This document shows, piece by piece, positions 62,447-64,000 of a stretch of 64,000 nucleotides of DNA. The notes beneath the pieces were generated by a model, which was not told where the DNA came from, made no database searches, and saw nothing but the letters and a program-made list of their open reading frames with translations. The position numbers and the translations under genes are program-made. Positions within the stretch are counted from its first letter, which is position 1. The number at the start of each line of letters is the position of its first letter. Origin of the DNA: Escherichia coli (GTDB lineage: Bacteria > Pseudomonadota > Gammaproteobacteria > Enterobacterales > Enterobacteriaceae). Location: the NCBI RefSeq assembly GCF_016903815.1, contig NZ_CP069973.1. The stretch is one strand, 5' to 3'.

Positions 62447-63238
62447 ATGAGCGAGAAATTAAAGATAGTCTATCGCCCATTACAAGAATTGTCACCGTAT
62501 GCGCACAACGCCAGGACGCACAGTACTGAGCAGGTGGCACAACTGGTAGAAAGTATTAAGCAATTCGGCTGGACTAATCCGGTGCTGATTGACGAAAAGG
62601 GCGAAATTATTGCGGGTCACGGTCGTGTTATGGCGGCTGAAATGCTCAAAATGGATTCTGTTCCGGTCATTGTTCTGTCTGGCCTGACGGATGAGCAGAA
62701 AAAGGCGTACCGCCTGGCAGATAATCGCCTGCCGATGAATGCTGGCTGGGATGAAGATCTGTTGCGGATGGAGCTGTCGGACCTAATCAATGCTGATTTT
62801 GATGTCTCCCTGACAGGCTTCATCCCGACAGAAATTGATGAACTGTTGACGGATGTTTTGCCCGGTACAGGAAATGAGGAGGAGCCGTATACGACGAAAA
62901 TTGATACGCCTGTTTATGAGCCGTCGGGCGGTAAACCGGATATCAGTGAACTGTACGACGATACGAAAACTCAGGAGCTGATCAGCCGGATACGTTCGGC
63001 GTCCCTTGAGCCTGATATTGAGAAATTCCTCCTGTGTGCGGCAGAACGTCACACGGTGTTTAATTTCAGCAGAATTGCGGACTATTACGCTCACGCCCCC
63101 TCTGAAATTCAGTGTTTTTTCGAGGAGTCGGCGCTGGTGATCATTGATTATCAGCAGGCTATTGAAAATGGATTTGTCCGGATGACGCAGCGCATGGTGG
63201 AGATCATGCATGGTGGTGAGGAGGAGGAATATGCGTGA
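62447..63238 (+). CDS. ParB/Srx-fold nuclease-domain protein (263 aa); likely full-length form of K-12 ynaK
   Basis: N-terminal ParB-like motifs (GHGRV); acidic C-terminus; overlaps next gene by 8 nt. Confidence 0.65.
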   Translation: MSEKLKIVYRPLQELSPYAHNARTHSTEQVAQLVESIKQFGWTNPVLIDEKGEIIAGHGRVMAAEMLKMDSVPVIVLSGLTDEQKKAYRLADNRLPMNAGWDEDLLRMELSDLINADFDVSLTGFIPTEIDELLTDVLPGTGNEEEPYTTKIDTPVYEPSGGKPDISELYDDTKTQELISRIRSASLEPDIEKFLLCAAERHTVFNFSRIADYYAHAPSEIQCFFEESALVIIDYQQAIENGFVRMTQRMVEIMHGGEEEEYA

Positions 63239-64000
63239 TGATTTTTGCGCCTTTATTCTGACTCACGGGCGACCGGACAAAGTTCTGACTTACCGGACGT
63301 TGCGTCGTGCTGGCTATACCGGGAAAATTTTTATCGTTGTTGATGATGAAGATAAGACACGGCATCAGTACATGGCTGAATTTGGGGAACAGGTGCTGGT
63401 GTTTTCCAAAGCCGATATCGCCAGTCGTTTTGACGAAGCCGATAATTTCTGTGACCGCCGCTCAATTTTTTACGCCCGTAATGCCTGTTTCGACCTGGCA
63501 AAACTGGTCGGGTGTAAATACTTCATTCAGCTCGATGATGATTATCACGAGTTCCAGTTTCGGGTGGATCGCAACTATGACCAGGCCTATTTTCCGATAA
63601 GGAAACTGGATGCGATCCTTTCTGAAATGCTGGCGTACTACGAATCAATACCTGCTCTTTCCATCGCTATGTCGCAGGGCGGGGATTTTCTTGGTGACAA
63701 TGGCGGCCATGCTTCGTGGGTGAAACGCAAGGCAATGAACAGCTTTATCTGTTCGGTTGAACGACCGTTCTCATTCATGGGGCGCATTAACGAGGATGTG
63801 AATACGTACACGAATCTCGGTCGCTGTGGTGAATTGTTTATGACGATCGGTGCTGTCCAGTTAGGGCAGAAACAGACGCAGAAAAACAGCGGCGGAATGA
63901 CCGAGCTGTATCTGGATTCCGGAACCTACGTTAAAAGTTTTTACTCCGTCATGTATGCGCCGTCGTGCGTAAAAATCTCACTGATGGGTGCCAGCCATAA
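63231..64000 (+). CDS. Uncharacterised protein, 3' end beyond window; possible DxD-type transferase
   Basis: Hand-translated frame open from ATG 63231 to window end; IVVDDED and QLDDDYHE acidic motifs. Confidence 0.5.
   Translation, partial: MRDDFCAFILTHGRPDKVLTYRTLRRAGYTGKIFIVVDDEDKTRHQYMAEFGEQVLVFSKADIASRFDEADNFCDRRSIFYARNACFDLAKLVGCKYFIQLDDDYHEFQFRVDRNYDQAYFPIRKLDAILSEMLAYYESIPALSIAMSQGGDFLGDNGGHASWVKRKAMNSFICSVERPFSFMGRINEDVNTYTNLGRCGELFMTIGAVQLGQKQTQKNSGGMTELYLDSGTYVKSFYSVMYAPSCVKISLMGASH

Follow-up and report, generated by a model that had tools for sequence, protein, structure and literature searches.

An obligate pair of overlapping viral genes, encoding a ParB-fold partner and a TAGT-family glycosyltransferase, in a Rac-like prophage of Escherichia coli

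INTRODUCTION

Characterized members of the Pfam family TAGT (TET-associated glycosyltransferase; PF20691) glycosylate DNA (bioRxiv 10.1101/2023.12.21.572611; PMC13390438). The characterized TAGT and GT-A-fold enzymes need 5-hydroxymethylcytosine (5hmC), 5-hydroxymethyluracil (5hmU), or a sugar already present on these bases, and the bases are supplied either by a cytosine methyltransferase together with a TET/5mYOX enzyme or by a thymidylate-synthase homolog (bioRxiv 10.1101/2023.12.21.572611; PMC13216743). Here, we analyze a 64,000-nucleotide (nt) stretch of Escherichia coli DNA (contig NZ_CP069973.1 of assembly GCF_016903815.1; hereafter, the window), at the end of which two overlapping open reading frames (ORFs), ORF1 and ORF2, encode a ParB-fold protein and a TAGT-family glycosyltransferase (GT), respectively, and we compare this pair with the systems described so far.

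Many phage genes for such enzymes stand alone: ~65% of mined GT contigs have no 5mYOX or ThyS neighbor (bioRxiv 10.1101/2023.12.21.572611), and a solitary TAGT was found in 288 of 753 GT-encoding phage genomes (PMC13216743). These orphan GT-A/TAGT genes were left unexplained, and no partner was reported for them (bioRxiv 10.1101/2023.12.21.572611; PMC13216743). ParB folds, for their part, occur fused to methyltransferases, and these fusions are enriched in prophages (PMC12704722); moreover, a phage ParB-fold protein without a DNA-binding domain is the obligatory activator of a thymine dioxygenase on double-stranded DNA (PMC13229309). In the searchable literature we found no description of an obligate TAGT partner, of the new domain that it carries, or of its position ahead of terminase genes, and nothing relevant was found under the name "ynaK," by which ORF1 is labeled in many genomes.

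RESULTS

The two genes overlap and form an obligate module across viruses

ORF1 encodes 263 amino acids (aa). Since the ATG of ORF2 lies at 63231 and the TGA of ORF1 ends at 63238, the two genes overlap by 8 nt (ATGCGTGA). The ORF2 reading frame is still open at base 64000, and its full length of 310 aa was read from 100%-identical E. coli chromosomes (e.g., NZ_CP033884.1, locus L001, to which coordinates marked L001 refer). The original prediction, made from the DNA letters, had proposed a 263-aa ParB/Srx-fold protein that is coupled through an 8-nt overlap to a gene running off the window, the pair lying downstream of trkG and being reduced in K-12 to a short ynaK remnant. Our analysis bears out this arrangement and adds a Shine-Dalgarno sequence at the junction (GGAGGAGG) and the Pfam and structural matches of ORF1 to ParB proteins (see below). 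On sequence grounds, both ORFs are real genes rather than chance reading frames.

A tblastn search of a phage collection detected the GT at 27 to 47% identity in several virus groups, namely Lactobacillus phages (phi jlb1, c5, LL-Ku, phiLdb, and others), Nocardia phage NTR1, 191-kb Vibrio phages, Porphyromonas phages, and the haloarchaeal virus HHTV-2. The pair is thereby found in phages of Proteobacteria, Firmicutes, Actinobacteria, and Bacteroidota, as well as in one haloarchaeal virus. In phi jlb1, c5, NTR1, and the Porphyromonas phage, a ParB-like gene is followed by an overlapping GT gene and then by terminase, and in HHTV-2 several genes separate the overlapping pair from the downstream gene for the large terminase subunit (TerL).

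A first set of 88 loci was made up of 80 loci from a scan of IMG/VR, together with reference phages and two metagenome look-ups, and an ORF1 homolog lies immediately upstream of the GT gene in all 88. Similarly, a second scan, which started from the Porphyromonas-phage GT and its mere ~27% identity with the E. coli protein, yielded 71 informative loci, every one of which has an ORF1-type partner upstream. The two sets together give 159 of 159 informative viral loci with an ORF1 homolog directly before the GT gene. Dereplication at 80% identity left 45 groups, i.e., 44 separate pairs and the contig L085, on which ORF1 and the GT are fused in frame; the genes of all 44 pairs overlap, by 4 to 20 nt (mode, 11 nt). 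Of 33 dereplicated loci, 26 encode TerL no more than five ORFs downstream of the pair (median, 523 nt from the GT stop codon); of 55 second-scan loci, 49 have a TerL gene no more than 4 kb downstream (median, 366 nt). The TerL genes next to the pair belong to at least six families (phrog_2, 9, 15, 38, 5653, and the E. coli type), and no other gene family is conserved up to a distance of 8 kb to the left or right. The two genes form an obligate module that usually lies directly upstream of terminase genes.

One contig (L088) carries two partner-GT pairs ~3.5 kb apart (9577-10861 and 13095-15228). One of its partners consists of the C-terminal domain only (144 aa); in the other, of 431 aa, the ParB domain is preceded by 186 additional N-terminal aa.

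ORF2 looks like a catalytically intact GT-A enzyme

ORF2 matches PF20691 over model positions 4 to 205 of 205 (E = 2.6e-34; 119 bits), and its homologs, which form at least 8,000 clusters at 90% identity and 1,321 clusters at 50% identity (E <= 1e-3), carry the precomputed PF20691 annotation. It also matches phrog_842 (E = 1.6e-103), to which the T6 beta-glucosyl-HMC-alpha-glucosyltransferase belongs as well (E = 5e-78); the T6 enzyme has been described as a TAGT (PMC13390438; PMC13216743). An AlphaFold model built on 42 homologs has a GT-A fold, with a predicted local distance difference test score (pLDDT) of 87.7 and a predicted template modeling score of 0.83. Its best match in the PDB is TarP (6h4m), followed by other GT-A enzymes, and in AFDB50 the top matches are nearly all TAGT-domain proteins. 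TarP is likewise the top PDB match of phage GT-A enzymes proven to act on 5hmC in DNA (bioRxiv 10.1101/2023.12.21.572611).

The active-site pattern of phage GT-A DNA glycosyltransferases, R...DDD...ED(Y/F) (bioRxiv 10.1101/2023.12.21.572611), appears in ORF2 as R14, D102-D104, and N187-E188-D189, all conserved in the family, with Val rather than Tyr or Phe after ED. In the same alignment, in which conservation was scored on 42 sequences of 38 to 81% identity, D41 is invariant. Because the R14, DDD, and NED residues are kept across the family, ORF2 looks catalytically competent; by sequence and model, it looks like a catalytically intact GT-A enzyme of the TAGT family. The original prediction had called the product transferase-like and had singled out the motifs IVVDDED and QLDDDYHE (aa 35 to 41 and 100 to 107), which turn out to be conserved Asp motifs of a TAGT glycosyltransferase. 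The completion of ORF2 and the comparison with transferase structures that it had proposed gave the 310-aa protein and the GT-A fold reported here; ORF2 is not a structural phage protein, and the pair is no characterized Rac gene.

A PDB sequence search with ORF2 gave no match, no NCBIfam family covers it, and PADLOC returned no defense-system match. Direct similarity of the ORF2 family to the T6 ggt protein was considered and rejected, as an hhalign comparison of the family profile was not significant, leaving a link through PHROG and Pfam only.

At its C terminus (L001:13772-13864, aa 281 to 310), ORF2 is ~22 aa longer than nearly all relatives, which typically have 283 to 295 aa. Disorder is predicted for this extension (pLDDT < 50), which runs 23 nt into the next gene and looks like read-through after loss of an ancestral stop codon.

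Co-evolution ties the C-terminal domain of ORF1 to the GT

Over its entire length, ORF1 matches phrog_620 (E = 1e-90); its AlphaFold model (pLDDT 85.7) has three parts: an N-domain, a disordered linker, and a helical C-terminal domain. The Pfam match to ParB_N is weak (E = 1.9e-6). By Foldseek, the N-domain matches MxParB (7bnk) with a root-mean-square deviation of 2.9 Å over 138 columns, and further matches include CcParB, BsParB, KorB, PadC, Srx, and SerK; on the CTP-bound ParB structures (MxParB, CcParB, and BsParB), the fit is 2.8 to 3.0 Å over ~138 columns. An alignment with Spo0J indicates that the phosphate-binding residues R23, R60, and N93 are retained, while the catalytic Gln (Box I) and Glu of ParB are replaced by N21 and H58, AGHGR standing for GERR; G57 is invariant, and H58 is the majority residue (60 to 90%). 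The closest profiles to the N-domain are ParB domains fused to DNA methyltransferases (phrog_498, E = 8.8e-51; PADLOC MTase_II, E = 1.5e-38), and the score against the canonical ParB family TIGR00180 is 38.1 bits, below the cut-off of 58.45. No parA gene is annotated in the prophage, and a search for parS-like palindromes or repeat families around the pair gave only short pairs of chance quality and the GCGCAGA repeats described below for the gene of the small terminase subunit (TerS).

Within the linker (aa 139 to 160; pLDDT 45 to 67) begins the motif YTxKIxxPxYEPxGxKP, in which Y148 is nearly invariant. The motif is also kept in partners that lack the N-domain, and from its sequence conservation we propose that it may be a docking peptide for the GT or, alternatively, a glycosylation acceptor. 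For the C-terminal domain, which is previously undescribed, Pfam gave nothing, and a PDB sequence search gave spurious coiled-coil matches only. A hidden dioxygenase in the C-terminal half was ruled out, since its ~100 aa are all helical, which a double-stranded beta-helix fold does not allow.

The C-terminal half of ORF1 is the better conserved one, with a mean pairwise identity of 52% in the C-terminal domain against 34% in the N-domain; for the GT, the value is 53%. When distances between sequences were compared over 37 dereplicated pairs, those of the C-terminal domain correlated with those of the GT (r = 0.54, Mantel P = 0.0005), whereas those of the ParB N-domain showed no significant correlation (r = 0.07, P = 0.24). 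Furthermore, some partners (L048, L088, L090, and those of the Vibrio phages) are of ~130 to 150 aa and consist of the linker motif and C-terminal domain only. A search with a profile built from this domain brought up 990 proteins, and those with the highest scores are stand-alone proteins of 129 to 170 aa with no Pfam domain; all three stand-alone proteins that were looked up are encoded directly upstream of a TAGT gene and overlap it. The existence of partners without an N-domain and the distance correlation point to the C-terminal domain, and not the ParB domain, as the conserved GT-specific part of ORF1, with the ParB domain as an exchangeable accessory, a division of roles that the original prediction had not noticed. 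In nearly all pairs, the partner is acidic (isoelectric point [pI] ~4.3 to 5) and the GT is basic (pI ~8.5 to 9.5).

Some pairs adjoin methyltransferase genes, and some GTs carry further enzymatic domains

A ParB-DNA-methyltransferase fusion is encoded two genes upstream of the pair on L057, and an SNF2-N6/N4 methyltransferase (L100) and a Dam-like methyltransferase (L102) lie beside pairs whose partner has the C-terminal domain only. Metagenomic GTs are fused to a P-loop kinase-like domain (P0151, P0191, and P0200), Methyltransf_23 (P0128, P0132, and P0166), Sulfotransfer_2 (P0165), or a second TAGT (P0148 and P0149). Where neighbors of the fused GTs could be read (P0151 and P0165), an ORF1-type partner is located upstream, and one of the two loci has a terminase downstream. 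These domain combinations suggest that the transferred sugar may be further elaborated in some viruses. Radical SAM genes accompany two partner-GT pairs, directly upstream in one case (L093:80-1042) and a few genes downstream in the other (L101:7053-7655).

The pair lies in the late operon of an intact Rac-like prophage

The host element is an intact Rac-like prophage at ttcA, with intR, recET, kilR, sieB, and ydaT onward to the tail fibers. Genes follow in the order holin, GH24 lysozyme, Rz, trkG, ORF1, ORF2, a 69-aa TerS-like protein, TerS, TerL, and portal, placing the pair after the lysis cassette and within the late operon. The 1.7-kb pair region is 100% identical in many E. coli chromosomes and is also present in ten deposited "phage" records of induced prophages; at >=80% coverage, the query region occurs in 912 of 5,426 complete E. 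coli genomes, ~1 in 6. Feature coordinates are collected in Table 1.

Table 1. Features of the partner-GT pair and its upstream boundary (window coordinates)
Feature	Coordinates	Strand	Remarks
ORF1, putative glycosyltransferase partner/adaptor, intact form of K-12 ynaK	62447..63238	+	acidic, pI 4.5
ORF1 N-domain, predicted ParB-CTPase/Srx fold, aa 1-135	62447..62851	+	Foldseek, Pfam ParB_N
ORF1 linear motif YTxKIxxPxYEPxGxKP, aa 146-164	62882..62938	+	predicted disordered linker; Y157 invariant
ORF1 C-terminal helical domain, aa 165-256	62939..63214	+	motifs AAxRH, SALVIID
Translational coupling junction	63220..63238	+	Shine-Dalgarno GGAGGAGG 63220-63227; ORF2 ATG 63231-63233; ORF1 TGA 63236-63238
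ORF2, predicted GT-A-fold glycosyltransferase, Pfam TAGT (PF20691)	63231..64000	+	first 256 of 310 aa in window; pI 8.6
DxD metal and nucleotide-sugar motif D102-D103-D104-Y105 (within QLDDDYHE)	63534..63545	+	each at least 90% conserved
Second acidic catalytic motif N187-E188-D189-V190	63789..63800	+	N187, D189 invariant; consensus GRxNEDVNTY
Intrinsic-terminator-like hairpin and T-tract closing the trkG insert	62396..62429	+	hairpin 62396-62419; 10-bp stem, 7 GC pairs, then TGCGTTTTAT

Directly upstream of the pair, trkG (60834-62309) forms a low-GC insert between the Rz gene and ORF1, with a GC content of 36 to 40% against ~49%; at the hairpin that closes the insert, GC climbs from 36 to 41% up to 49%, and in ORF1 and ORF2 it equals that of the phage backbone. 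No convincing promoter was found between this hairpin and ORF1. Because the insert ends in a strong terminator-like hairpin, the pair and the terminase genes would be reached by read-through of the late transcript, which must then be antiterminated to pass it. Between a DUF1133 antiterminator-like gene and the holin gene, the window holds a further low-GC (~39%) ORF of 189 aa with predicted hydrophobic segments (58515-59084), annotated only as hypothetical, which may be another moron.

K-12 MG1655 retains only an 87-aa ynaK remnant, with ydaY directly after it. In many RefSeq E. coli genomes, the intact ORF1 is annotated as a 258-nt "ynaK" pseudogene with "missing C-terminus" (L001:12148-12405; window 62447-62704), leaving ~525 nt without annotation. 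This model is apparently based on the truncated K-12 protein, and identical DNA elsewhere is annotated as a ParB/Srx family protein.

Two small-terminase-like genes follow ORF2 beyond the window end (L001:13842-15149). The first encodes the 69-aa protein, which matches the helix-turn-helix part only of the phrog_309 TerS, and the next encodes a 364-aa phrog_51 TerS. The 5' part of the latter gene contains three direct repeats ending in GCGCAGA (L001 14191-14256), which may be pac-related or may merely code for the AQK-rich repeat of this TerS.

DISCUSSION

A DNA glycosyltransferase with a separate partner subunit

For the function of the pair, we favor a late-expressed, two-subunit glycosyltransferase, most likely acting on phage DNA shortly before packaging, and we give this reading about an even chance. 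The original prediction had tentatively suggested a DNA-modification or anti-restriction role; its structural calls hold, and its functional part stays a proposal. One enzyme-partner unit is kept in viruses of Gram-negative bacteria, Gram-positive bacteria, and archaea, and therefore its acceptor should be common to all of them; the obvious candidate is DNA, which, unlike envelopes or virion proteins, is common to their hosts. The chemistry of the family, the basic GT, the methyltransferase-type ParB domain, the late-operon position, and the ParB-fold precedent lead to the same reading, as do the methyltransferase genes beside some pairs. Post-replicative modifications must be complete by the time the late or packaging operon is expressed. 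In the mechanism that we propose, the acidic C-terminal domain and YEP peptide of ORF1 would dock onto the basic GT, and the ParB-type N-domain would be an interchangeable NTP-binding accessory that engages or gates the enzyme on DNA, being of the same kind as the ParB domains of phage DNA methyltransferase fusions and the activator of thymine dioxygenase on double-stranded DNA. The sugar, added to phage DNA after replication, would serve as a protective hypermodification.

Several observations weigh against DNA as the acceptor. As ORF1 is strongly acidic and has no recognizable helix-turn-helix or dimerization domain, its loading onto DNA is not evident, and the TAGT-related eukaryotic protein GREB1 glycosylates a protein (PMC7968844). 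Moreover, the usual source of the acceptor was not found: the Rac-like prophage annotation lists no TET/5mYOX, thymidylate-synthase homolog, or alpha/beta-GT; no hydroxymethyl-pyrimidine source is annotated in the complete phage c5 genome (31.8 kb), in which the longest ORF without an assignment has 209 aa; ten Pfam-annotated loci have no TET/5mYOX or thymidylate-synthase gene; and no such gene is among the 20 commonest Pfam families listed for 149 neighbor-family representatives, where single occurrences are possible. With respect to dioxygenases, these negatives rest on annotation and a Pfam census, no TET/JBP hidden Markov model scan of the fetched loci having been run. Since neither TET/5mYOX nor thymidylate-synthase homologs were found, the canonical pathway of hydroxymethylation followed by sugar transfer cannot operate, and the acceptor would not be phage-made 5hmC or 5hmU. 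A bolder version of the favored reading is that the pair adds sugar to DNA without a premade hydroxymethyl handle, i.e., to a canonical base (e.g., an exocyclic amine), a host-modified base, or the backbone, the adaptor domain enabling the reaction and a ParB-type NTP switch confining it to phage DNA by engaging the DNA beside the site at which packaging starts. We hold this version to be rather unlikely; if true, it would be a new chemistry of DNA hypermodification and would also explain the hundreds of "solitary TAGT" phages in recent papers.

The main rival is protein glycosylation, the acceptor being either a Tyr or Thr in the partner's own disordered YTxKIxxPxYEP peptide, in the manner of glycogenin, or an adjacent packaging or virion protein. 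The position of the invariant Y157 and nearly invariant Y148 in a disordered linker beside the GT-associated domain would suit such a reaction, to which the missing hydroxymethyl-base pathway is no obstacle; GREB1, a eukaryotic TAGT relative, O-GlcNAcylates its protein target (PMC7968844), UniRef names ORF2 relatives "GREB1-related," and the pair adjoins head and packaging genes. However, a conserved virion acceptor is unlikely because the pair is followed by terminase and head proteins of many unrelated families, only the partner itself being conserved. The N-domain of ORF1 is of the type fused to DNA methyltransferases, the characterized phage TAGT/GT-A enzymes act on DNA, and the GTs are mostly basic; overall, we consider a protein acceptor distinctly unlikely. 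The position of the pair gives some weight to a packaging accessory, in which the ParB-like protein would aid terminase (e.g., in pac/cos recognition or cleavage) and the GT would mark DNA or a packaging factor rather than lay down an anti-restriction coat. HNH or ParB-like nucleases act at pac/cos in some phages, and TerS/TerL follow the pair with striking regularity (26 of 33 and 49 of 55 loci, with median gaps to TerL of 366 to 523 nt): in phage c5, the genes after the cos site start with this pair, and in Nocardia phage NTR1, the GT stop codon abuts TerL with no small-terminase gene between them. The diversity of TerL genes (at least six families) nonetheless argues against a specific protein-protein partnership with terminase, most related phages package their DNA without the pair, and variants with a C-terminal-domain-only partner lie away from terminases, in replication or modification neighborhoods of larger phages. 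As the first genes of the late operon are also where late-acting DNA-modification genes would be expected, we regard a packaging role as improbable.

The two remaining readings, like the packaging one, are less likely than protein glycosylation. That the pair might act on a soluble nucleotide, a signaling molecule, or RNA (e.g., in counter-defense), with the ParB fold binding an NTP-like ligand, would accord with the binding of CTP, ATP, or GTP by ParB/Srx folds, which include true small-molecule kinases such as SerK and Srx (PMC12704722; our Foldseek matches), and with the fusion of some GTs to a P-loop kinase-like domain; the conservation of the pair from Bacteria to Archaea would likewise be explained by an acceptor that is soluble and universal. 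Yet the core unit can do without the NTP-binding domain, as the variants that lack it show, co-evolution with the GT is not seen for the N-domain, no conserved nucleotide-metabolism genes were found near the pair (neighbor families; 20 commonest Pfam families listed), and PADLOC has no defense-system match for the GT, so that we think there is little prospect of a small-molecule target. Modification of the cell envelope in lysogenic conversion, like that by prophage-encoded TarP or Gtr systems, is suggested by TarP being the best solved structural match of the ORF2 model and by the frequency of envelope glycosyltransferases in prophages. This reading has to contend with a GT that is kept at 40 to 47% identity in viruses of Gram-positive, Gram-negative, and haloarchaeal hosts with completely different envelopes, with the presence of the pair in strictly lytic-looking phages, with its location in a late operon behind a terminator with no promoter of its own found, and with an ORF2 product that is predicted to be soluble and has no flippase or Gtr partner annotated nearby. 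We consider it very improbable.

Significance of the pair

Existing database labels ("ParB-like partition protein" or "ynaK pseudogene" for ORF1; "hypothetical," "GREB1-related," or "beta-glucosyl-HMC-alpha-glucosyltransferase" for ORF2) describe neither gene well. One large clade of orphan GTs is shown here to occur always with a co-evolving partner, which is built from a new domain that is often joined to a ParB-type NTP-binding domain. We infer that the pair represents a TAGT-family system that differs from the known ones in its subunits and, necessarily, in its acceptor. As a putative DNA glycosylation system, it would extend an emerging theme in which ParB folds are accessories of DNA-modifying enzymes. 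The module is unusually easy to test because many E. coli strains carry it and K-12, a natural null host, does not, and the outcome would show either that a very common E. coli prophage makes a new DNA modification or that a "DNA glycosyltransferase" family has non-DNA clients.

Comparison with known systems

Canonical ParB proteins of ParABS systems share with ORF1 the N-terminal NTP-binding fold and its phosphate-binding Arg and Asn positions. In contrast, ORF1 falls below the TIGR00180 cut-off, has Asn and His in place of the catalytic Gln and Glu, and has no ParA, ParA-binding motif, helix-turn-helix, or dimerization domain; the labels "chromosome partitioning protein" and "ParB-like nuclease" are misleading for it. 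Nearer relatives are the prophage-enriched ParB-DNA methyltransferase fusions of phrog_498 (PMC12704722), which hold the closest ParB domains to that of ORF1 (E = 8.8e-51). ORF1 differs from them in that its ParB domain is part of a polypeptide of its own, where an adaptor domain would link it to the enzyme, and in that a sugar rather than a methyl group would be transferred. The 5mYOX176/ParB176 system (PMC13229309) likewise has a ParB-fold protein with no obvious DNA-binding domain, there an essential accessory of a post-replicative DNA-modifying enzyme, encoded by genes that are often near terminases. There the client is a dioxygenase, whereas that of ORF1 is a glycosyltransferase, with no dioxygenase found in the loci examined; the client-specific part of ORF1 is a C-terminal domain that also exists without a ParB domain, and the likeness to ParB176 is one of architecture, an NTP-binding domain combined with a C-terminal domain.

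As for the enzyme, the T6 ggt product (T2/T6 beta-glucosyl-HMC-alpha-glucosyltransferase) falls with ORF2 into phrog_842 and the same Pfam family and acts on DNA-linked substrates. The relation is nevertheless remote: the T6 enzyme needs a deoxycytidine monophosphate (dCMP) hydroxymethylase and an alpha-GT, neither of which was found in the prophage annotation, and unlike ORF2 it has no ParB-like partner. More alike are the TET/5mYOX-associated phage GT-A DNA glycosyltransferases (PMC8256090; bioRxiv 10.1101/2023.12.21.572611), which share with ORF2 the PF20691 domain, the GT-A fold, TarP as best PDB match, and the R...DDD...ED pattern, which act post-replicatively, and whose genes are often near ParB-like and terminase genes. 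The pair differs from these systems in that no cytosine methyltransferase, 5mYOX, or thymidylate-synthase homolog was found with it. Finally, the characterized TET/5mYOX-associated enzymes need no partner, whereas the ORF2 clade has an obligate, translationally coupled one.

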